Numbered from the stretch's first letter, positions 7,198 through 17,080 are shown. The stretch is DNA of 23,270 nucleotides from Candidatus Micrarchaeota archaeon (GCA_038046605.1 JBBSVW010000026.1:1-23270); one strand, 5' to 3'. Program-made: numbers and translations. The notes: generated by a model from the sequence alone, not told the origin.

Positions 7198-8721
7198 CTA
7201 ATTTCCTCCCCCTTCCTTGAAATTCATGTGGTCCAATTTTCCGGTGTGCATATTGTAATATGGGAAGATGCAGGGGGTTGGCATATGCCCAAGCCTAACC
7301 TGGTAATCGGTCCTATCCTGCCAGGTGCCCGAATTCACTATGAGCGTCCCGTTGTAGTTTTCGATGTGCCCGTTCTTATGCACATGCCCGAAATGGAACA
7401 TGTCGGGGGTTTCTTCTATCACAAGGTAATCCTTGGATTCTGGCACAAGGGGATCTTCCCCATATAGGGGGGAGAGGTGCTTTCGCTGAAGCAGCCCAAC
7501 AGCCACCTTTTCGGGATGATCGTAGCCATCCTTGTACATTGCGGTATGCGAAATAATCCCATCCAGCGAGGTTCCATGGTACATGAGAAGCTCAAGGCCG
7601 TGCACAAGGTGGGCGGATGGGTTGCCAACAAAATGGATGTTGGAATACCCTTTGAGGGATTCCCAGAATTCCTGCGATAATGCCGGCTGGGGCTCCGCCA
7701 CCCGAACCGCGTCATGGTTGCCAGGGGCAATAATGACTTCTATGTGGTCTGGAATGGTCTTGATGAATTCGCAGAATATCTCGTATTGGGTGTGGATGCT
7801 TTTTGTGACCAGCTGCTTTTCCTGCGAGGGGTAAACCCCAATGCCGTCTACCAGATCGCCGGCAAAACTTATGTATTTTATTTTTCCCGCAATCTCCCTT
7901 TGCTTTGGAGTGCCCTTCCCATTCAGGAATTCAAGCATTTTTTGGAAATTCTCCTGGAGGAAATACTTGGAGCCTACATGCGAATCCGAAAGGAAGCCGA
8001 TTAGCACCTCCTCTTCCGTAAGCTTTTTTGTGCGCTCCTGAAGGAGCCTTCCTGGCCGGACGAAATTTTTTGCGATCAGGAGGGAGGAATCAGTATGGTA
8101 GGTGTCGAATGCAATTACCTCGTCGTTTAGGATCTGGGATGCCTCATAGAAGATGCGGGAATCCTTTGGGACCAAAAGTGTTGCCGTGCTATCGCTATCC
8201 TCGATGTCAAACATCAGGTGGCCATTCTTGGTCACGCGCTTTTCATAAACCATCGCAATAATGCGCGCCTGCTTCCCCTTGAGATGGTTTTTCACATCCC
8301 GGATGGAATAGATGCCCCCGCTTTCCGTTGCCATGCCCCGAAGGCTTTTGCGGTGCTTGTCAAACCGGTCATTGAAATAGCGCACAAAATCCTCCACGCT
8401 TCCGGTGCAGCGGGAATTATTCGTTACGTCGTTCCTGATGGATAGGCTGATGTCGGATCCTATTGATTTAGCGGGAGGATCGTAAAAGGTTTGCTGCAAA
8501 ACCTCGACCTGAACGACCTTGCCCTCAATGGATATGCTTTCCACGATGTCATGGACATGCTGCCCATCGGCTATCATCAGGTTTCGCTTTGAGAGTTCCT
8601 CAATTATTTTTTCAGGTTCGGAGTATTCCATGATGCCAATTAGCGCCTCGGGCGAAACTATGACCTCCTTTTCCTTGAGCCTTTGAAGAATTTGGCCCCT
8701 GTCAAGTGCCATGATGACCAC
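7198..8721 (-). CDS. polB: DNA polymerase D small subunit DP1, proofreading exonuclease (start probably ATG at 8712)
   Basis: Calcineurin-like phosphoesterase motifs SDSHVGS, AGDLVDGIGVYP, PGNHDAVRVAEPQP, YHG, HFGHVH, NSGTWQ, plus an OB-fold region; directly upstream of DP2. Confidence 0.97.
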   Translation of the reverse strand: MVIMALDRGQILQRLKEKEVIVSPEALIGIMEYSEPEKIIEELSKRNLMIADGQHVHDIVESISIEGKVVQVEVLQQTFYDPPAKSIGSDISLSIRNDVTNNSRCTGSVEDFVRYFNDRFDKHRKSLRGMATESGGIYSIRDVKNHLKGKQARIIAMVYEKRVTKNGHLMFDIEDSDSTATLLVPKDSRIFYEASQILNDEVIAFDTYHTDSSLLIAKNFVRPGRLLQERTKKLTEEEVLIGFLSDSHVGSKYFLQENFQKMLEFLNGKGTPKQREIAGKIKYISFAGDLVDGIGVYPSQEKQLVTKSIHTQYEIFCEFIKTIPDHIEVIIAPGNHDAVRVAEPQPALSQEFWESLKGYSNIHFVGNPSAHLVHGLELLMYHGTSLDGIISHTAMYKDGYDHPEKVAVGLLQRKHLSPLYGEDPLVPESKDYLVIEETPDMFHFGHVHKNGHIENYNGTLIVNSGTWQDRTDYQVRLGHMPTPCIFPYYNMHTGKLDHMNFKEGGGN

Positions 8722-8819
8722 TAATTGTTATTTTTCCCTCCAACTATTAATTGCGTTTTTCCCGATTTTAAATAAGCAAAAGATACCTTATTAACCCCCT
8801 TTCCGAAAGTTTAAATCCC

Positions 8820-8846
8820 ATGATAATCCTAGGCTTTGAAAGCACG
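8820..8846 (+). pseudogene. Duplicate kae1 5' fragment (MIILGFEST), interrupted by the hairpin element
   Basis: ATG ATA ATC CTA GGC TTT GAA AGC ACG matches 8 of the first 9 residues of Kae1 at 9022 (MLILGFEST). The frame runs into the element and stops at 8862-8864. Confidence 0.75.
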
Positions 8847-8948
8847 ACACCCCATGGGGGCTAAGCCCCAACACCAAGGGGAAAGATTCCCCCTACCGTG
8901 TTGCCCTACCCCCTCAAGTGCGCCGCCTCCCCCTTATTTAGTCCTTCA
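8845..8948 (+). repeat. Hairpin element copies A (outer, 8845-8948) and B (nested, 8869-8913)
   Basis: Outer: CGACAC-cccat-GGGGGC-taa-GCCC[..]..caa-GTGCGCC-gcctccccc-TTATTTA-gtc-CTTCA. Inner: CAACAC-caa-GGGGAA-aga-TTCCCC-ctacc-GTGTTG-ccc-TACCCCC. Both align with the copies at 10951 and 14717. Confidence 0.8.
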
Positions 8949-9021
8949 AATCAATTGATGATGGGCATATTAACGAAAGCGGGCTTGAAATTAATATTGT
9001 TAAAAAAAACAGGGATTAAAA

Positions 9022-10197
9022 ATGCTGATCCTGGGTTTCGAATCAACGGCGCATACATTCGGGGCGGCTGTGGTTGAGAGCAAATTGGATTTGGGGAAGG
9101 CTGGAAAGAAGGGATATACATCCGGGAAAATACTTAGCCCATCGAATACCAAAATTATCGCCGAAACAGACATGAAATTCCCCGCGCTCAAGGAGGGATT
9201 CATTCCGCGCAAGCTTGCGGATTTCCATGCGAGGAATTTTGATGGAATTTTGGATGGGACGCTGGAAAAGGCGGGGGTTGGGCTTGGTGATTTGGATGCT
9301 GTTTGCTATTCATATGGCCCTGGCATCGGGCACACATTGCATATTGGCTTCATTGCGGCAAAAAGCATCTCCATTGCAAAATCCATACCGATGATACCAG
9401 TGAACCACGCGCTTTCGCATGTGGAAATCGCAAGGTTCCATTCGGGGATAATCGATCCGCTTGCTGTTTATGTCTCCGGAGGGAACACACAGATTATGGT
9501 GCTCGAAGGCCTGATGCATGGAGGGATAAAAAATGCAAAAAGAATGGGGGAGACTGAAAAATCCAATGGAAAGCACCCCGCATCTGCCCATTTGAAGCGA
9601 TACCATGTTTTGGGGGAAACCCTCGATATTGGCCTTGGCAATTATTTAGATCAGGTGGGAAGGCATTTCCGGCTTTCTCCACCAGATGCTGTGGGCGTCC
9701 TAAAGCAAGCTGCAAATGGGAAAAATCTGCTTCCACTCCCTTATATAGTGAAGGGGATGAACACCTCCTTTTCAGGCATGCTAACGGCAGTAAAAAAACT
9801 TGGGGCGAATTCAAATGGCGGCATAAACGGGAAAGGGCACAAAAATAATATCGATGGCACGAAGGCAGTAAATAGATTGCCGGACATTTGCCTCTCCGCA
9901 CAGGAATACGCCTTTTCGATGCTCCTTGAAACCGCCGAAAGGGGTTTGACACTGACCGGAAAGAAGGGGATAGTCGGAGTTGGGGGAAATTACCGCAACA
10001 AGCGCCTTCAGGAAATGACAATGGAACTATCAAAAGAGCATAAAATCAAGTGCCATTTCCCCACATTTGAACTTCTGGGGGACAATGCAGGGATGATCAC
10101 AATTACCGGGACGCAAGAGTTTGCATCAGGAATTTATCCGTCAAATCCAGCGCCCAACCAGAAGGCAAGGATTGATGGGGAAATTGTGGGTTGGTAG
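9022..10197 (+). CDS. kae1: tRNA N6-threonylcarbamoyladenosine synthesis protein Kae1 (KEOPS), not fused to Bud32
   Basis: LGFESTAHTFG, YSYGPG, VNHALSH (HxxxH), YVSGGNTQ, GETLDIGLGN, GDNAGMI. Confidence 0.95.
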   Translation: MLILGFESTAHTFGAAVVESKLDLGKAGKKGYTSGKILSPSNTKIIAETDMKFPALKEGFIPRKLADFHARNFDGILDGTLEKAGVGLGDLDAVCYSYGPGIGHTLHIGFIAAKSISIAKSIPMIPVNHALSHVEIARFHSGIIDPLAVYVSGGNTQIMVLEGLMHGGIKNAKRMGETEKSNGKHPASAHLKRYHVLGETLDIGLGNYLDQVGRHFRLSPPDAVGVLKQAANGKNLLPLPYIVKGMNTSFSGMLTAVKKLGANSNGGINGKGHKNNIDGTKAVNRLPDICLSAQEYAFSMLLETAERGLTLTGKKGIVGVGGNYRNKRLQEMTMELSKEHKIKCHFPTFELLGDNAGMITITGTQEFASGIYPSNPAPNQKARIDGEIVGW

Positions 10198-10283
10198 GCT
10201 AAAATTACAACCACGGTTGCATATCAAAAGGCCACCCTAGCGTTTAAATAAACTGGAAACTTGAATCTATTTCCAACAATAAG

Positions 10284-10766
10284 GTGCTAAACCATATGGA
10301 ACACAAATCTGATGAAGCTGTCAAGGAAAAACGTGAATCGTGGGACCACTATTTCATGCGCCTGGTGGAAGCCATCTCAACCCGCGCAACATGCAACCGA
10401 AGGAAATTTGGGGCCTTGCTTGCTAGGGATCATTTCATGCTTGCAACCGGCTACAATGGCTCCGCCCGGGGCCTTCCGCACTGCTCGGAGGTTGGCTGCA
10501 AGCTCATCCATGGACACTGTGTGCGGACAATCCATGCGGAGCAAAACGCGGTGATTTCTGCCGCGCGAAACGGCATCAATGTTAATGGCGCAACGCTTTA
10601 TTCTTCCGGATACCCATGCCTAATTTGCGCCAAAATCCTCTCGAATTTGGGGATAAAGCGGATCGTCTTCAAGGAGCTGTATTTCAAGGAGGAGTACAAG
10701 GAGGAATTCGAGTTCACTCAGGAGCTATTCAAGGAGGCCGGCGTTGAGACGGTTCATTTGAAGTAA
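10284..10766 (+). CDS. dCMP deaminase / ComEB family zinc deaminase (start may be ATG at 10296)
   Basis: SWDHYFM, RATCNRR, TGYNG, IHAEQNA and PCLIC motifs. Confidence 0.92.
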   Translation: MLNHMEHKSDEAVKEKRESWDHYFMRLVEAISTRATCNRRKFGALLARDHFMLATGYNGSARGLPHCSEVGCKLIHGHCVRTIHAEQNAVISAARNGINVNGATLYSSGYPCLICAKILSNLGIKRIVFKELYFKEEYKEEFEFTQELFKEAGVETVHLK

Positions 10767-10842
10767 TGCTAAAGCAATATTGCAATTTCAGCTGCCTGAT
10801 TAGTAATATATAGCATTGCCGCCAAAATAAGTACCTATTCCT

Positions 10843-10948
10843 GCAGGGGTGGCAGAGATTCCCGCAAGGGGACTGCAACTTGGTCAAATGCGCAGGGCTT
10901 AGGACCCTGTGCCTTAGGGCTGCAAGGGTTCAAATCCCTTCCCCTGCA
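10843..10948 (+). tRNA. tRNA-Leu(TAG) with a 21-nt D-loop intron (10858-10878, position 15/16)
   Basis: Acceptor GCAGGGG/CCCCTGC + A73; anticodon arm CAGGG-CTTAGGA-CCCTG; long variable arm; T arm AAGGG-TTCAAAT-CCCTT. Mature length is 85 nt after removing the intron. Confidence 0.93.
10858..10878 (+). other. tRNA-Leu non-canonical intron (BHB/BHL type)
   Basis: 4-bp helix GCAG(10852-55)/CTGC(10873-76) with 3-nt bulges AG|A and AA|C; inner stem TTCCC-GCAA-GGGGA with a GNRA loop. Confidence 0.88.
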
Positions 10949-11031
10949 CTCGACACCTATAGGGGAGTAACTCCCCTACTCGTGTCGCCTCTACCCCTTT
11001 ATTTACTTCAGCAAATCCCTTCCCCTGCACT
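10931..11031 (+). repeat. Perfect 20-bp direct repeat of the tRNA-Leu 3' end flanking a 61-bp insert
   Basis: CAAATCCCTTCCCCTGCACT at 10931-10950 and 11012-11031. Confidence 0.95.
10951..11011 (+). repeat. Hairpin element copy C
   Basis: CGACAC-cta-TAGGGGAG-taa-CTCCCCTA-ctc-GTGTCG-cctc-TACCCC-tttattta-CTTCA. Confidence 0.85.
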
Positions 11032-11105
11032 ATCCCTATTGTTCGATAACCTAGCCTGAATGCAAGCATAGTTCGAAAAAATAAATAAAAAGGCAAAAAA
11101 AGAAA

Positions 11106-12635
11106 TCAAAGCTTGGGGAACATCGCCTTTCTGTGCTGTTCCCGGTCAACTTCCTCCCTTGCAAGCGGCTGCTTCTTTTCCCCGGATCCCATCACAGTGC
11201 GGATATCCATCTCCTTGTTGTGGATGCCCCCGCTCCCGCCCTTCTTCCTGAATTTGACGATGTAAATCACGACTCCAATCAAGGTGGCAAGGACGACGAC
11301 AATCGCTACAGTTGTTGTCAAATCCAGCTCGTTTTGCCTTGAAGGAAGGCCAAGGGCGCGCCGGCCAATATCAATGAATTTGGCCTCAAGTTTTGCGAGC
11401 TCCGCAACAGTGACTACCGAATTGTTTGAAAGCCGTTTGTTTACATCATCCATTTCCGAACGGACAGATTTATGTTCGTTTGTTAGGTCGATTACGCGGG
11501 TATCATTTGCGGTATATTTTAACGCTGCAGCATCAATTGCCGCTTTAGCGTATTTTTCAGCCGATACGGTTTTGTTGTATGAAAACAAAAGACCATTTGG
11601 ATCGTCTATTATCGCTGCAAGTTCCCCATAACGCGTGTTCATGGTATTGAAATTATTGGAAGCGCCCTCGAAAGTGCTCGAATTCTTCAATTTTTCATAG
11701 GCTGCCTCAATTTCCTTGTATTTTGCATCAATTGGGGCGAATTTGACCGGCACAACCGATGTCTTGTTGATCGCCTTTTCCAGCACCTCCCTTCCCTGCA
11801 CCTGGAGCTCCTTGATTTTAAGCACATCCTTCCTTGAATTGTAGATTCGGATGATATCCAAGGCCTCCGTATTGATATCAGTGATCTTGTCCCTATAAGC
11901 CTCCCCGGATAGGCGGATTACCTCGTCCACATAGCCGTATTTGAATGCGCAGAATGGATCTTTTTCCATTGTCTTTCCAAGGAAATAGGCATAGCCAACG
12001 CCCGCATCGTCAAAATAAACCGTTTCGTTTTTAGCCTTTGTTCCCGCAATGTTTATTTGGGAAAGGGCGTCCCCTATCTGCTCCCTGCTTGCTGCCGTTT
12101 TCAGGAGCTGGATTTTTTCATCGTAAACATCCCACGATTCCTTCATGCGCTTCCGTTGGGCAAATACTGCATCGCAAACCCTGCCGGTTGAGGCATCAAC
12201 ACAACGGAACTGAGCCCAGAAGAAATTGGTTTCAACAAGGTCATAGAAGTAGAAATGGCATTTGTCAAATAGCACTTTTGATTCGTTGTAGTTTCTAAGA
12301 AGATCAGCTTTTGTAGCCTCGGTAAAGCCCGTGGCGCCGCTTTGGAGGTAATAATCCCTCAAAACCGAAACCAAAGTCGCCTCATCGGTTACCGGATCGA
12401 CTTTATCATTGAACACAAGCGAGCTCTTGCCATCTATCAAGACGACATAAAATACCTTCCCTTCGGATGTGTTCAGGATGAAATATTCGGCGCTTTCGCC
12501 CCTAAGCACATATTTCCTTGCCTCATCATCAACGTTTTTCGTTGCGGCATTGGAAAAGGCGGCAATTAGCAGCAAGAACAGCATTGCAAAACCGGCAAAT
12601 TTCATGTTAGTCTTCATAGGGATCACTATTCTCAA
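11106..12635 (-). CDS. Hypothetical surface protein: signal peptide, helical/coiled-coil ectodomain, C-terminal TM anchor (start may be 12617 or 12605)
   Basis: Signal MKFAGFAMLFLLLIAAFSNA; Ala/Glu/Lys-rich helical body; TM VAIVVVLATLIGVVIYIV followed by KFRKK. Confidence 0.85.
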   Translation of the reverse strand: MRIVIPMKTNMKFAGFAMLFLLLIAAFSNAATKNVDDEARKYVLRGESAEYFILNTSEGKVFYVVLIDGKSSLVFNDKVDPVTDEATLVSVLRDYYLQSGATGFTEATKADLLRNYNESKVLFDKCHFYFYDLVETNFFWAQFRCVDASTGRVCDAVFAQRKRMKESWDVYDEKIQLLKTAASREQIGDALSQINIAGTKAKNETVYFDDAGVGYAYFLGKTMEKDPFCAFKYGYVDEVIRLSGEAYRDKITDINTEALDIIRIYNSRKDVLKIKELQVQGREVLEKAINKTSVVPVKFAPIDAKYKEIEAAYEKLKNSSTFEGASNNFNTMNTRYGELAAIIDDPNGLLFSYNKTVSAEKYAKAAIDAAALKYTANDTRVIDLTNEHKSVRSEMDDVNKRLSNNSVVTVAELAKLEAKFIDIGRRALGLPSRQNELDLTTTVAIVVVLATLIGVVIYIVKFRKKGGSGGIHNKEMDIRTVMGSGEKKQPLAREEVDREQHRKAMFPKL

Positions 12636-12715
12636 TTAAGATGGGGGAGTTTTTAAATCTAAGCAGTTGGGAAGCTAAAAAAGTTCCGGTCAGAAATAAA
12701 GGCTGCCCCATTGAT

Positions 12716-14041
12716 TTATTCAAGTAAGGGATTTGCAACTTTCCCCATGAAGAGAATGACGCCGGTTGCCTTCTCCTGGATAAGGAAGATGAAGGGATGG
12801 TCGGCCTTGAATTCGGGAATGTATTGGGGCATTATTGCGGTTATGCCAACAACAATGCCAGTTGCAGCGGCGGCCTCAGTGCCTTCCTCATTAACCTCGA
12901 CAAACGCCTTGTGGTATGCTCCAGTTACTGAAAGGCCAAGGGTACCATCAATACCCGAAAGATCTGCACCCTCAGAAAATACGTCCCCGACACCCATGGC
13001 CATCAAATTCTCCTTTAATGAATAGCCGTCATCAAACTTGAATTTGGGGAAGATGAGGTCGATGCGGCGCTGGCTCATTCCAGATTTCCATTGGCCCAAC
13101 TTCTCAACAGTCAAGCTGCGCTCAAGACCAGCCAATTCACCATCCTTCGGAAGCAATACTAGCATGGAAAGCGAATCGCCCTTGTAGGGCATTTCAAGGA
13201 CCTGCAGCTGTTCATTTTCCATGTAATTAAACACGGCATCCTTGTCGTTCCGGTACATATATTGGGCTTTGGCCTTTTGCCCTCCCTCCAATCTGAATTC
13301 GCCTTCCAACGTATCCTTCTTATCAAATGCTTTTATCCAAGTGCCCTTGAAATAGATGGCATTGGCAATAACCAACCTAGTGCCAAAGTCAACTGATCCT
13401 TGTGGAAGCAAATCAACTATCTTATCGTTGGTTTTTTCTTCCACCCAATCATTTATCGTGTTTCTGGAACCCTCAGCATTGTTCTTGAAATCAACATTGC
13501 GAATTTCGCTCCCATAAAAATCAGATGCGGTTGCCTTGTAGGCGTTTAGGATGGGGTAGGTTTTTTCTATCCAAAGTGAATTTGCAACGCTTAGTTTGTA
13601 GGCTTCATTCCTGGCATTAAGCCTCGTATTGAGGTCCTTGAACCCGTTTTGCCTTATAGCGGAATCAGGATCAAGCCCAAAAACTCCCTGAAGCTCACTA
13701 GCCGTGATTCCTTTTGCACCCTCAGCCAGGATTGCAAACGCCTCGCTTATGCTGAAAGGTGAGAAAAAGAGGTTTCCGGCTTCCTTATCCTTTATTTGGG
13801 AGTAGAAATCAAATGCGAATTTGTTGTTCGCATCCGCCATTGCCAGGTCGGATGGGGAAATGGAAACAGAAGGAATGGATGTAGGGGATGGAATGGACGT
13901 AGGTATTGGCGTTGAACTTGGAATTATAGTTGCAGAGGGGGAAATTGTTGGAGTTGGGGATGGGATGGGCTGCATTTGATTTGTGCATCCAAATAATAGA
14001 AGCCCGGAAATCAACAAAAGTGCAATTAATGCAAATTTCAT
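12716..14041 (-). CDS. Serpin (serine protease inhibitor), lipoprotein-type signal and Pro/Ser/Thr linker
   Basis: NLFFSPFSIS, INDWVEEKTNDKI, NAIYFKGTW, hinge VNEEGTEAAAAT, FKADHPFIFLI, LFMGKV. Start moved to MKFALIALLLISGLLLFGC (ATG 14041, AGGTGG SD-like sequence upstream). Confidence 0.95.
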   Translation of the reverse strand: MKFALIALLLISGLLLFGCTNQMQPIPSPTPTISPSATIIPSSTPIPTSIPSPTSIPSVSISPSDLAMADANNKFAFDFYSQIKDKEAGNLFFSPFSISEAFAILAEGAKGITASELQGVFGLDPDSAIRQNGFKDLNTRLNARNEAYKLSVANSLWIEKTYPILNAYKATASDFYGSEIRNVDFKNNAEGSRNTINDWVEEKTNDKIVDLLPQGSVDFGTRLVIANAIYFKGTWIKAFDKKDTLEGEFRLEGGQKAKAQYMYRNDKDAVFNYMENEQLQVLEMPYKGDSLSMLVLLPKDGELAGLERSLTVEKLGQWKSGMSQRRIDLIFPKFKFDDGYSLKENLMAMGVGDVFSEGADLSGIDGTLGLSVTGAYHKAFVEVNEEGTEAAAATGIVVGITAIMPQYIPEFKADHPFIFLIQEKATGVILFMGKVANPLLE

Positions 14042-14156
14042 AACCATTCCACCTGCACAAATTAAGGGCGAATTTGTATATATACCATTTTGAAAGGTTA
14101 AAGATTGGCTTAACATCCGATTTTGAGCCTTGTTGCCTATGCGCTTCCCCCCCTTT

Positions 14157-14169
14157 GAAACCTTTAAAA
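14157..14169 (+). promoter_or_regulatory. Putative BRE-TATA promoter of the tRNA-Tyr/tRNA-Asp pair
   Basis: GAAACCTTTAAAA 61 nt before tRNA-Tyr; the same 13-mer occurs at 3471-3483 (-). Confidence 0.55.
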
Positions 14170-14261
14170 AAGAAGGATGGCATAAATCTATTCCATTCCC
14201 GAGAATACAGCATGTCGGGAAGTAGTTAATCCCGCAGTAGCTCAATCTGGCAGAGCGTCTG

Positions 14262-14355
14262 CGAGCCTCTTTTTCTTTCCCAAAAGAAAAAGACCCTCGG
14301 GAGAAAAAGGAAAGGGTTTTTATCTGGAATATGAATAAAAAGAGGTTACGGCGAA
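14262..14355 (+). other. tRNA-Tyr intron 1 (94 nt, position 30/31)
   Basis: BHB: helix CGTC(14256-59)/GGCG(14350-53), bulges TG|C and AA|A, outer AG/CT, inner stem AGCCTCTTTTT/AAAAAGAGGTT. Confidence 0.85.
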
Positions 14356-14362
14356 ACTGTAG

Positions 14363-14423
14363 TTCGGCTGATCTCGGCCTTCTTTAAAAGGAGTGCAAAA
14401 TGAGGTCGAATCGCTTACCAGAT
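14363..14423 (+). other. tRNA-Tyr intron 2 (61 nt, canonical 37/38)
   Basis: Relaxed BHB: CTGT/CCAG (one mismatch), bulges AG|T and AT|A; inner GATCTC/GAGGTC stem. Confidence 0.85.
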
Positions 14424-14445
14424 ATCAGACGGTTGCCAGTTCAAA

Positions 14446-14547
14446 AGGCCTTGCCTTTCTTTTAGTAAAAGAAAGGCGATGGCGCCGCCAAAGAAAACTC
14501 TTTTGCGGCTCCGCCGAATAATATTATTTATCCGGCTGGGCGGAAAA
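14446..14547 (+). other. tRNA-Tyr intron 3 (102 nt, T-loop 59/60)
   Basis: Relaxed BHB: TTCA/GGAA (one mismatch), bulges AA|A and AA|T, outer helix is the T stem. The exact boundary is ambiguous within the A runs, but the length is fixed by a 7-nt T loop. Confidence 0.8.
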
Positions 14548-14604
14548 TCTGGCCTGCGGGATTTTTGCCTTGGTAGTGTAGTGGTCCAGCATAGGGGCTT
14601 GTCG

Positions 14605-14695
14605 TCGAACCTTTTTCTTTTCTCGAAAAGAAAAAGCACTCCGGAAAAAGAAAAGGAAGTGTGTTTCGCGAATTAGAGAAGGAGGTTCTGCAAAC
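14605..14695 (+). other. tRNA-Asp intron 1 (91 nt, canonical 37/38)
   Basis: BHB helix TTGT(14599-602)/GCAA(14690-93), bulges CG|T and AC|A, inner GAACCT/AGGTTC. Confidence 0.88.
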
Positions 14696-14716
14696 AGCCC
14701 TTGACCCGGGTCCGAA

Positions 14717-14796
14717 TGACACAAAGGGGGATGTTTCCCCCTATCGTGTCGCCTTACCCCCTCTTGATTGAAGGGAAAATGGCGTTCATACGGAAA
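14717..14796 (+). other. tRNA-Asp intron 2 (80 nt, T-loop 59/60), containing hairpin element copy D (14717-14762)
   Basis: Helix TCCG(14711-14)/CGGA(14791-94), bulges AA|T and AA|T. The 5' part is TGACAC-aa-AGGGGGA-tgtt-TCCCCCT-atc-GTGTCG-cct-TACCCCC. Confidence 0.85.
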
Positions 14797-14811
14797 TCCC
14801 GGCCAAGGCGC

Positions 14812-14823
14812 TTTTTCTTTTTT
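14812..14823 (+). terminator. Oligo-T archaeal terminator after tRNA-Asp
   Basis: TTTTTCTTTTTT immediately downstream of the discriminator base. Confidence 0.6.
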
Positions 14824-14846
14824 AATAACACTAACCGCTAGTCGGT

Positions 14847-14945
14847 TCAAAACTCAATCGTCTTCCCTTCCTTAGGAATCCTCACATTCTTATGCAGTTC
14901 CTTGAAATCCTCTGCCCGATCCGTGTGAATTGGAATAGCAACAAG
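14847..14945 (-). pseudogene. C-terminal remnant of a probable MBL-fold/beta-CASP (RNase J-like) hydrolase
   Basis: Frame reads LVAIPIHTDRAEDFKELHKNVRIPKEGKTIEF*. IPIHT followed by a V-x-I-P-x-x-G-x-x-I-E-F end resembles that family's C-terminus. There is an in-frame stop upstream at 14979-14981 and no ATG. Confidence 0.5.
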
Positions 14946-14998
14946 CAAATTATTTGTTTTACCCGCAAGGGCAATTATTTAGGGTTAGATCCCTTTTC

Positions 14999-17080
14999 CT
15001 AAATGGAGTCTTCCATGCGCATTTCGGTTTTATCAATCAGCGGCACAATTATTTTATTTATTTTTTTTATGTAATTTTCGCAAATGCTAACGTCTTCCTT
15101 TGATTGGTTAATAATTCGACCGCTCGATCCGTGCCCATAGGGACCACGAATAAACGATATTTTACTTAAGGCTTGTTGTAATTCGCCTAAGTTTGCAAAT
15201 CCATTAGGTTTAACAAAAATATTTTCAAAACAATCCGTCCAATTATTTTTTTGGGAAATAATATTTATTTCCTGCCCTAGGTCGATAAAATCTTCAAATT
15301 GCCCATTTTCCTTTTTCTTTTTTTCATTTATATAACCTTGAATGTCGCCGGGGATTCTGCTTTTTTCCCATTTTGAATCAATTATTTGTAAAGTATTTCT
15401 TATCATTATACTTATATTTCTTTCAAGATTTTGAATTTTATCGAATATTTCTTCTTCCTCCATGCTCTCCCAGAAACTAACACCAACCTTCCGTTTGATT
15501 TCGACACCAATTTTTTTTGCTAGATCCTTCCTTGCTCCCTCATTGGTAGTACTTAATTTGATTTCCCTTATTGCGGTTTCATCCAATTCCATGAAATATT
15601 CGCCAATTACTTCCACATATTTCGATAATGCCTCTCTTGACGGTATTCGCTCAATATGAGACAAAATGGGTTCAAACAAATAGAGTAATACGGGCACACC
15701 TGCATTACCAAAAACATAATTTCGCGCGTTTTCTTTAGTTATTTTTTCATAGATAGATTTGAAATATCTGCTAATAGTATTTGCAGTCCTATTTCGTTGC
15801 GTCATTTTATTCTCGTCATAAAGGGGGTTATTGATCCCCCTTAAATTTGGAAGCAAATCTCGGGTTATTCTCGAGTTTTTTATACCCGAACAAAATGCAC
15901 TAATGGAAATTGACGATTCTGTTTTTTGCCCTTTTTTTGGAATGTAAATCATGTTTTCAAATGGATTGTTTTTTAAATCTGCAAAATTTGCAGGGGGGGA
16001 ATCTATCATTTTTACAATATTTGAAATTAACCCTTCTTCAGTTTCGCAATACGGATCAGCCTCACCTTCCAAGTCCCAGATTAAATCAGATGAAACAGGT
16101 TTTTGCTCCTTATTAATATCGAGAAATAAACTCCTCTCCTCATTTGGTTTAAGAAGAGTTAATGCTATACAAGGGACTAAATCAGATTGTTTTGCCCGTA
16201 CTGCACCAAATAACCTGTGTTGACCATCAATAACCCAACAATTTTGCCCGGTAATATTCAAAAAAACAAATTCCCAATCTGGTGTTTTTTTATATATTTT
16301 ATAATAATAAGAATCGTTGATGGGACCCCGTAAGGATAAAATAATATTTGATGGAAAATAACCTCCGGTATCAACATATTTCTCTATTCGCTTGAGTTTA
16401 TTTTTTTCGAGAGTCCTCTGATAAAATTCCTCGTCTCCCCGCCCTCTTCTTGCAACATATGATATTTTTATAAGGTCCAATGGATTTGCATAGAAAATAA
16501 AGGCAAAACGCCCACCAAGTTTCGTTTTGATCGCAGGGATTTGAAAAGGTTCACTAATAAAGGGTATATTGGAATATTTTGAAATTTCGTTAAGTATGCT
16601 ATAAACCGCATTTTCCTTAATCTTATCAGATAAATCGTTATAATAATCTAAAAACTGCTCATCGATCAAAAAGATTTTATCGGGACCATTTTGTAAAATT
16701 GTTTCCCCTTGAGGCGTAAGCCCCATTCGTTTTATTGCCAATATGGGAATTATTTTCTCAAAATCTTTGTCTTTTTTATTAGAAAAATGAGTAATTATCG
16801 TATTTACTTTATCCCGCCATTCACGTATTTCACTAACCTGCAATTTCTTTAATTTCCCCCGACTTTTACCAGATTTGCATTCAATAATAAACAAGTTTTT
16901 TCCAAATTTGGCTATGCAATCTATTTCAATTTCTTCCGATGAAATATGTATTGTTTCCTTTGTTTTAACTTCAGAAAAGCCAGCTCTTTCAAATAGACTT
17001 TTAATTTCTATCTCGAAGTTATCTCCAACTTCAACAGAAGATTCCTCATCCTCAACTTGGTCTTCCATGAAATCTACCAT
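14999..17080 (-). CDS. DGQHR (DndB/ParB-like) domain protein with N-terminal PD-(D/E)xK nuclease-like and C-terminal HEPN-like domains
   Basis: N-terminal FE...EIDCIAK...IIECKS; central YQR, FPSNII, VIDGQHRL, LFLDINKEQKPV; C-terminal LE..I..MI..L.....WEK..IP and RGPYGH (Rx4H). Confidence 0.85.
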   Translation of the reverse strand: MVDFMEDQVEDEESSVEVGDNFEIEIKSLFERAGFSEVKTKETIHISSEEIEIDCIAKFGKNLFIIECKSGKSRGKLKKLQVSEIREWRDKVNTIITHFSNKKDKDFEKIIPILAIKRMGLTPQGETILQNGPDKIFLIDEQFLDYYNDLSDKIKENAVYSILNEISKYSNIPFISEPFQIPAIKTKLGGRFAFIFYANPLDLIKISYVARRGRGDEEFYQRTLEKNKLKRIEKYVDTGGYFPSNIILSLRGPINDSYYYKIYKKTPDWEFVFLNITGQNCWVIDGQHRLFGAVRAKQSDLVPCIALTLLKPNEERSLFLDINKEQKPVSSDLIWDLEGEADPYCETEEGLISNIVKMIDSPPANFADLKNNPFENMIYIPKKGQKTESSISISAFCSGIKNSRITRDLLPNLRGINNPLYDENKMTQRNRTANTISRYFKSIYEKITKENARNYVFGNAGVPVLLYLFEPILSHIERIPSREALSKYVEVIGEYFMELDETAIREIKLSTTNEGARKDLAKKIGVEIKRKVGVSFWESMEEEEIFDKIQNLERNISIMIRNTLQIIDSKWEKSRIPGDIQGYINEKKKKENGQFEDFIDLGQEINIISQKNNWTDCFENIFVKPNGFANLGELQQALSKISFIRGPYGHGSSGRIINQSKEDVSICENYIKKINKIIVPLIDKTEMRMEDSI

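Follow-up and report, generated by a model that had tools for sequence, protein, structure and literature searches.

A hairpin-and-tail repeat element at gene ends, tRNA 3' ends and T-loop introns in one family of Micrarchaeota

What puts the same small hairpin in front of a protein gene, behind a tRNA gene and inside the intron of another tRNA gene within one stretch of archaeal DNA? The question is raised by a 23,270-nt stretch (the window; window coordinates are counted from its first letter) of the 1.64-Mb genome of a Candidatus Micrarchaeota archaeon (GCA_038046605.1, JBBSVW010000026.1:1-23270). An earlier note, made from the sequence alone, had described four copies of a structured mini-element there, at kae1 and at tRNA loci, and proposed that it is mobile but non-autonomous. 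All four copies exist: three are matched by a covariance model, and the inner copy of a nested pair is recovered by pattern. Our analysis suggests that this is probably an orphan, non-autonomous copy-and-paste element, with a sense single-stranded intermediate and a long, variable target duplication. That the element is structured and is, or was, mobile is borne out by its copy-number spread, by sites filled in some genomes and empty in others, by flanking duplications and by nesting.

Copies, family and fold of the element

The element measures 60-130 nt overall and takes three forms: type 1 (~65-75 nt), a long type with two extra hairpins between the first hairpin and the tail, and a short type, some copies of which sit inside another copy, at a single fixed point along the 3' strand of its first hairpin. 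In the 5' hairpin, an outer stem of 6 bp that covaries leads through a 3x3 internal loop rich in C to an apical stem formed by a G-run and a C-run. The hairpin is followed by a C-rich tail, a T-rich block and a conserved TGCGAAT block; by eye, this TGCGAAT(C) block at the 3' end of the element resembles the T-loop sequence TTCGAATC. The two ends (hairpin foot versus T-rich/TGCGAAT block) are unrelated, and there are no terminal inverted repeats. The copies in the window and the genes that they adjoin, all on the plus strand, are:

8820-8846, plus strand: displaced kae1 start, first 9 codons (MIILGFEST); differs from 9022-9048 at 8 of 27 positions, with one amino-acid change
8845-8953, plus strand: composite element, comprising the outer copy, tail CGCCGCCTCCCCC and a T-rich stretch; model match of 38.1 bits, read across the insert
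8869-8913, plus strand: short-type inner copy (hairpin and CCCTACCCCC tail) lying within the outer copy; pattern match (8869-8903 plus tail)
9022-10197, plus strand: kae1 gene; its working start, 9022-9048, is the downstream repeat copy
10843-10950, plus strand: tRNA-Leu(UAG), D-loop interrupted by ~22 nt; the upstream repeat copy is formed by its final 20 nt (10931-10950)
10951-11011, plus strand: type-1 element; covariance model match of 82.5 bits (10951-11018)
11012-11031, plus strand: second, downstream copy of the 3' end of tRNA-Leu, running from the T-loop to discriminator plus 1; 20/20 identical to 10931-10950
14567-14810, plus strand: tRNA-Asp(GUC) gene, exons 14567-14604, 14696-14716 and 14797-14810; found by ARAGORN after intron removal
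14605-14695, plus strand: tRNA-Asp intron 1, at position 37/38
14717-14796, plus strand: tRNA-Asp intron 2, 80 nt, in the T-loop at position 59/60
14717-14782, plus strand: short-type element at the 5' end of the T-loop intron; model match of 34.9 bits, first base of the element being the first intron base

The contexts described earlier were correct for all four copies, namely the 27-nt copy of the kae1 start, the 20-nt tRNA-Leu repeat, the nesting and the T-loop intron of tRNA-Asp(GUC). At kae1, the displaced start adjoins the element and its final 2 nt (CG) are common to both; a relative, G005, has the same arrangement. The inner copy interrupts the 3' hairpin strand of the outer copy at 8845, and the same composite layout is found on other contigs of this genome (labelled C followed by a number), at C76:12924-13012, C89:16793-16879, C55:12435-12546 and C89:9938-10049. 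The copy at 10951-11011 has the outer stem CGACAC/GTGTCG, the 3x3 internal loop, the apical stem and the tail CGCCTCTACCCC, with a T-rich 3' part shorter than the consensus, and folds with a minimum free energy of -21.4 kcal/mol. Window copies are more stable than shuffled controls (z = -6.5 for this copy against mononucleotide shuffles, and -4.9). The tRNA-Leu(UAG) gene beside it is taken here to start at 10843, and ARAGORN and Rfam place the start at 10864; the D-loop insert lies at about 10858-10879, and taking out 21-27 nt yields a full tRNA-Leu.

A pattern search of the genome of the stretch (G000) returned 43 copies. A covariance model built from 27 G000 copies, the means by which the earlier note proposed that further copies be sought, gave 90 matches in G000 at E<=0.01, a number far beyond chance. 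After merging, these correspond to ~75 loci on 46 contigs, with nine of the 90 omitted as second matches on loci already counted (opposite-strand matches, or matches to the tail part of a long-type copy). The family was sampled with 11 genomes including G000, all of them metagenome-assembled genomes (MAGs) that are 68-97% complete, and the element is carried by 10/10 of the others, with 4-67 matches each (E<=1e-4). Among genomes of ten other families of the order, 2/30 had a match, a single weak one apiece. A 17-mer from the element was found in 39 stretches of genome_contigs, 20 of them from Micrarchaeota, Norongarragalinales or 'archaeon' MAGs, and the remainder are single bacterial matches at chance level. 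The same 17-mer had no match in viral_contigs, and a viral origin was rejected on that ground. The element is restricted to one Micrarchaeota family, and the public records in which it occurs carry the titles Candidatus Micrarchaeota or Norongarragalinales. In keeping with the note, no described family was matched: a scan of the window with all 4227 Rfam families (E<=1) matched only the tRNA at 10864-10948, and literature searches on Micrarchaeota or DPANN repeats, MITEs (miniature transposable elements bearing inverted repeats) and introns found no account of the element.

The proposed covariation of the stems was upheld. In the 27-copy alignment, 94.2% of cells are paired, and none of 500 shuffles reached as high a value. 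In 55 further matches, mostly from relatives and in an alignment fitted to the model, the figure is 95.8% (0/500 shuffles), and 11 of 14 pairs vary on both sides (for example GC:37 / AU:11 and AU:42 / CG:6). When the structure is shifted by 1-3 columns, pairing falls to 38-62%. The variant stems ACCC/GGGT and ACAA/TTGT are further compensatory changes, and in the long type such changes occur in each of the three hairpins. The closing pair is UG in 25 copies, CG in 24 and A-C in none. A U-G closing pair would be a C-A mismatch on the other strand, which indicates that folding takes place on the sense strand.

The earlier note suggested, as an alternative pairing, that the CCCC tail might meet the GGGG arm, and the lengths of the two runs back this. 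The C-run of the tail is as long as the G-run of the hairpin in 63/90 copies (permuted mean 29.5; 0/5000 permutations), and the match persists among distinct hairpins (33/53; permuted mean 14.8; 0/5000 permutations). As the two run lengths covary, we suggest that the tail contacts the G arm, where it might act as the third strand of a triple helix, form a pseudoknot or serve as an alternative partner. The bases beside the runs fail to separate a triplex from a pseudoknot, the T after the tail being nearly invariant.

Gene ends, tRNA genes and flanking duplications

Copies flanked by direct repeats account for 32 of the 83 examined (~40%), namely 14 of the 43 pattern-defined G000 copies and 18 of 40 copies from relatives. 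The repeats are 14-73 nt long, and 22 of 33 repeat pairs have at most two differences. The upstream repeat ends between 7 nt before the first base of the element and 4 nt inside it, and the downstream repeat begins 2-92 nt past the tail. Since the former boundary is nearly fixed and the latter variable, the 5' junction is precise and the 3' junction ragged. In three cases (tRNA-Leu, C76:3119 and C55:21480) the start of the repeat resembles, by eye, the continuing 3' consensus of the element.

Orthologous empty sites, which the note had proposed to look for in relatives, were seen at both ends of kae1 and at tRNA-Leu. At the 3' end of kae1, the copy in G005 is flanked by perfect 41-nt repeats; in G000 the gene end is single and has no element beside it. 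In G005 the original TAA still stands on the displaced copy, and the insert supplies a TAG stop to the working one. At the 5' end of kae1 both G000 and G005 carry the insertion, and no element lies upstream of the gene in G003, G004 or G006. The tRNA-Leu site is empty in G010, and in G005 an inverted copy lies between duplicated tRNA ends. For a four-copy stack behind a 775-aa gene (C73:31300-31900), the model matched in one of seven orthologous loci searched. DNA contigs from four runs over window positions 8000-15000 gave no clean empty-site joint, as contigs break at the repeats. Searching the 3' flanks of the 43 G000 copies for 3' transduction, we found no second copy of a flank beside other elements, with one exception, a separate repeat adjoining C9:23058.

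A duplication of a gene end was also seen with a different insert. At the tRNA-Leu locus L070 (G007:C7), a sequence of ~85 nt that the model fails to match is flanked by two tRNA-Leu 3' ends that have diverged from each other. As this insert is a different sequence, gene-end duplication in this archaeal family extends beyond the hairpin element.

Only 2 of 75 loci fall inside open reading frames (ORFs; crude calls, >=150 aa), and ~91% of G000 is ORF. The earlier claim that all copies lie in the sense orientation of the local transcript stood for the window copies and failed genome-wide, where the element shares its strand with the gene to its 5' side in 20 of 43 cases and has the opposite strand in 22. 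Among the 14 repeat-bearing G000 copies, seven have their tail 18 nt or less from the stop codon of an ORF on the opposite strand (C9:23058, among the seven, is also a tRNA copy, and its 65-aa ORF looks spurious), three more are in the stack behind the 775-aa ORF, two are at tRNAs, and two, the window kae1 copy being one, are in sense orientation upstream of the start of a gene. In these repeat-bearing cases the intact gene is on the tail side, and the stop codon often comes from the element, either as the TGA of TGACAC or as the reverse complement of CCCC-TTA.

ARAGORN identified 13 tRNAs in G000, 4 of which are followed by a same-strand copy 1-5 nt past the 3' end; further tRNA-trailing copies can be seen beyond these four. 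The tRNA genes of G000 appear to be mostly interrupted at non-canonical positions, which would explain why only 13 were found in 1.64 Mb. Three copies form the 5' part of T-loop introns, in tRNA-Asp, tRNA-Gly(GCC) and tRNA-Gly(UCC), with the element starting at the first intron base. In the window, ARAGORN recovers a 73-nt tRNA-Asp only with 14605-14695 and about 14717-14796 removed. Lengths of 78-82 nt for intron 2 all give a tRNA across the junction, and the exact splice points were read from the fold. In that fold the T-stem is followed by a bulge of 3 nt, on the 3' strand, and then by a helix of 4 bp; the 5' site lies in a 1-nt bulge or mismatch. On this predicted structure, 14717-14796 is a bulge-helix-bulge intron of the relaxed form at position 59/60. 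The kae1 copy was also considered as a spliced mRNA intron, and this was rejected as no exon-exon pairing was seen by eye.

A possible enzyme gene was noticed at one further locus. At L073:472-1305, on the minus strand, a 277-aa ORF with two LAGLIDADG-like motifs (by eye) lies directly upstream of a tRNA-like sequence and a long-type element, and its sequence suggests that it may be a homing endonuclease in an interrupted tRNA gene.

How the element may spread

We propose that the element spreads by copy and paste, the intermediate being a single sense strand whose 5' end is fixed. The 5' end of the intermediate would be joined to the target with an overlap of 0-4 nt and its 3' end at a variable point, so that insertion would duplicate 14-73 nt of target. 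A duplication of this length would keep a gene whole when the insertion falls within its first or last few dozen bases, and surviving insertions would thus be those near gene ends. Preferred targets would include tRNA genes, either immediately beyond their 3' ends or in the T-loop at 59/60, and copies in the T-loop would be spliced from the RNA as introns of the bulge-helix-bulge type. The single-stranded intermediate, and host replication or repair enzymes as the engine, are inferred here. Two candidate intermediates can be envisaged. The first is RNA cut from tRNA co-transcripts or introns, which would need an RNA-copying polymerase. The second is single-stranded DNA arising in replication or repair, with mis-priming or template switching followed by flap ligation. 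In yeast, duplications of comparable size arise upon failed flap processing.

Several observations weigh against copy and paste with target duplication as the whole account. In 11 of the 33 repeat pairs (those with >=3 differences), a single codon phase accounts for 59 of the 82 differences, against a null of 40.7 +/- 2.5 (0/5000 permutations reach 59). Judged from the sequences, simple target duplication fails to account for these diverged repeats. A decaying duplicate would show no such pattern, which suggests that both repeat copies were in working genes until recently. The displaced kae1 starts of G000 and G005 likewise differ at 9 of 27 positions, and both encode M(I/L)ILGFEST. In a gene on C86, the element lies between two intact-looking gene ends in both G000 and G005, and the four gene-end copies could not be sorted by eye into working and displaced pairs. 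The sequences may reflect insertion alleles or gene ends exchanged between lineages, or cycles of deletion and re-insertion, and it is possible that some units arrive with a surrogate gene end. An overlap of >=1 nt at the 5' junction, present in about 16 of 30 junctions by an informal count, is only modestly above chance. Some copies have unique ~70-nt fillers between the tail and the downstream repeat, and two such fillers in G005 match only themselves in 5 genomes, leaving read-through from a source copy unsupported. The intermediate itself is reconstructed rather than observed, the ORF calls on which gene positions rest are crude, and an RNA route requires an RNA-copying polymerase, for which RVT_1 was sought and found in 0/11 family genomes (68-97% complete MAGs). 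Within the copy-and-paste account, later exchange of insertion alleles or of element-adjacent gene ends would yield duplicate pairs that differ mainly at synonymous sites.

A bolder version of this account, to which we give rather little credence, makes the element the vehicle of archaeal tRNA-intron mobility, moving without a dedicated enzyme. The 5' end would be cut by RNase Z or the splicing endonuclease and the 3' end would mimic a T-loop; host replication and repair would then copy the small RNA or single-stranded DNA into the ends of genes and tRNAs, for instance through mis-priming or template switching and ligation of a long flap, which would give rise both to new T-loop introns and to stacked spare gene ends, later swapped between lineages.

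Retroposition of the short interspersed element (SINE) type, in which RNA freed by RNase Z or the splicing endonuclease is reverse-transcribed at a nicked target, is the rival that survives best, and we regard it as unlikely. It would be consistent with target duplications that are long and variable, with a fixed 5' end that coincides with RNA-processing sites (1-5 nt past tRNA 3' ends, or the first intron base), with U-G pairs on the sense strand only and with a T-rich stretch after the tail that could terminate transcripts. However, target-primed reverse transcription of a sense RNA gives the opposite pattern to the one seen here, where the precise end of the element is 5' and the ragged end 3', and no source copy showed 3' transduction. 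RVT_1 was found in none of the 11 family genomes, although these are incomplete MAGs and divergent enzymes could escape the search; this result speaks against a retroposon lacking long terminal repeats, or of the SINE type, and leaves the reverse-transcription engine suggested earlier unsupported.

The synonymous divergence of some repeats could also be produced by a miniature integrative cassette, in which the element and a surrogate gene end acquired from a previous host recombine, within the gene end that they share with it, into the homologous gene, in the manner of integrative elements at tRNA genes, and displace the resident end. This would account directly for the excess of differences in one codon phase (59/82, in 11/33 pairs), for the four stacked, intact, synonymously different C-terminus copies at C73:31300-31900, for the sequence between tail and repeat at C18:5547, which is a diverged homologue of the displaced gene end, and for tRNA duplications that span the T-loop to the 3' end. 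We nevertheless consider it improbable. The 22 of 33 pairs that are identical or nearly so lie at unique genes, the native stop on the displaced kae1 copy of G005 and the new stop on the working copy are what target duplication predicts, the insert is merely 60-130 nt, and filler homology extends into the flank in only 2 of 14 cases. Nor is there a candidate recombinase in G000: Phage_integrase (PF00589) had no match there, while 14/14 control genomes match, Phage_integr_3 (PF16795) had none, and neither did Resolvase, Cas1 or the TnpB zinc ribbon. An integrative element with a tyrosine integrase was rejected on the two integrase results.

A position at gene ends followed by a T-rich stretch would suit an immobile terminator or RNA-processing hairpin flanked by slippage repeats, but some genomes have the element at an orthologous site where others lack it, matches range from 4 to 67 among relatives, copies are nested, and both orientations relative to neighbours occur. 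In a variant of this idea the hairpin is a MITE moved by a DDE transposase with long duplications like those of the IS1634 group, for which long, variable direct repeats have been reported. DDE_Tnp_1 is present in 6 of the 10 relatives within the family and also in families that lack the element, which has no terminal inverted repeats. Both forms seem very improbable to us. Assignment to the MITEs was rejected given the unrelated ends, duplications of 14-73 nt, the lack of co-distribution with DDE_Tnp_1 and the lack of any multi-copy protein: no family in G000 exceeds two copies at >=60% identity, and five paralogue pairs were found, including a winged-helix protein and an AAA ATPase (named by eye).

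Least probable of all is a REP/REPIN-like or IS200/IS605-derived hairpin moved in trans by a Y1 (HUH) transposase, because although G000 combines a many-copy intergenic hairpin repeat with a single Y1_Tnp gene, that gene is of foreign GC content with its own GC-rich hairpins unlike the element, only 5 of the 11 genomes with the element have a Y1 gene, and REP/REPIN and IS200/IS605-type systems are not known to duplicate the target on insertion. Y1 was not found in G002 (67 element matches), G005 (38) or G006 (31). These results set aside the HUH engine proposed in the earlier note, and with 32/83 copies duplicated they led us to reject membership of the REP/REPIN-RAYT group. The G000 gene itself (L073:1456-1902, corresponding to G000:C9:24252-24698) encodes an IS200-like protein of 148 aa in a GC-rich island, and from its sequence and the hairpins in its flanks it looks like a recent foreign insertion. 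No enzyme family tested tracks the distribution of the element.

Known systems and wider context

REP/REPIN repeats with RAYT, and IS200/IS605 palindromes, are short, abundant, structure-conserved extragenic hairpins that act through a single strand. The Micrarchaeota element differs from REP/REPIN in having no co-distributed Y1, in its long target duplications and in its extra C-rich tail and the T-rich block on its 3' side. Rickettsia palindromic elements are small structured repeats with no known transposase, found in reduced genomes and tolerated at or in genes and RNA genes. They insert in frame inside genes, whereas the Micrarchaeota element preserves genes by duplicating their ends.

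Among archaeal tRNA introns, those of Thermoproteales transpose (Fujishima et al. 2010, as cited in PMC4090602), by a mechanism that PMC4090602 describes as unknown. The element resembles these introns, as presented there, in that near-identical intervening sequences occur in different tRNA genes. In ARMAN-2, pre-tRNA-Cys has a T-loop intron at 59/60 that is cut by the epsilon2 endonuclease (PMC3239211). Some of our copies share with the introns described in that source the position 59/60, a relaxed bulge-helix-bulge junction and the same phylum. Unlike archaeal tRNA introns, most copies of the element lie at the ends of protein genes or after tRNAs, and the element has long duplications and a conserved core of hairpin plus tail.

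Insertion with long, variable target duplication and without a mobility gene has been described by Nobusato et al. 2000 and by Furuta et al. 2010 (PMC2853133). The insertions described in PMC2853133 are like ours in having target-copied repeats of tens of bases, a frequent overlap with gene 3' ends or tRNAs and no mobility gene. The features by which Furuta et al. recognise such events are found here, including an empty site in a relative, and their 30-bp threshold is reached by 19 of 33 pairs. The inserts described there differ from the hairpin element in being kilobase-sized bacterial restriction-modification units that represent single events; ours is a non-coding archaeal repeat of 60-130 nt with dozens of copies in a genome.

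The tail invites comparison with intrastrand triplex repeats (TMECO/BoxC), which consist of a G-run, a C-run and a second C-run and are associated with genome instability (Holder et al. 2015, PMC4666352). The element likewise has three G/C blocks, the third of which covaries in length with the G-run. However, its linker before the third block is ~16 nt including a stem strand, against a loop rule of 1-6 nt in PMC4666352, and its G/C runs are 3-6 nt, against stems of 6-15 nt, which places it outside the definition of an intrastrand triplex-forming (ITxF) sequence given in that source.

The gain and movement of non-canonical archaeal tRNA introns is an acknowledged open question (PMC4090602). 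Across related genomes, the same element is seen as a fresh insertion whose target duplications are intact, as a tRNA 3' trailer and as a T-loop intron, and because all three states occur in related genomes the steps from insertion to intron can be compared directly. The element also provides an abundant archaeal case of insertion with long target duplication in the absence of a mobility gene. It bears on how a compact genome tolerates a burst of repeats, in that the survivors would be those insertions that regenerate a gene end. Stacks of synonymously different gene ends point, in addition, to frequent exchange of gene termini between lineages.

Two other repeats were noticed along the way. 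A second short repeat, aaagaaagg...cgatggcgccgcc, lies beside or inside tRNA genes, and in the window sequences at about 14450-14500 and 14610-14660 resemble it by eye; the version of it in the 3' flank of G000:C9:23058 matches at least nine other contigs. An unrelated repeat of ~94 nt, at L160:719-812 (G000:C86:18018-18111), has at least 15 copies in G000 at 86-93% identity and also occurs in G005, G010 and G001.

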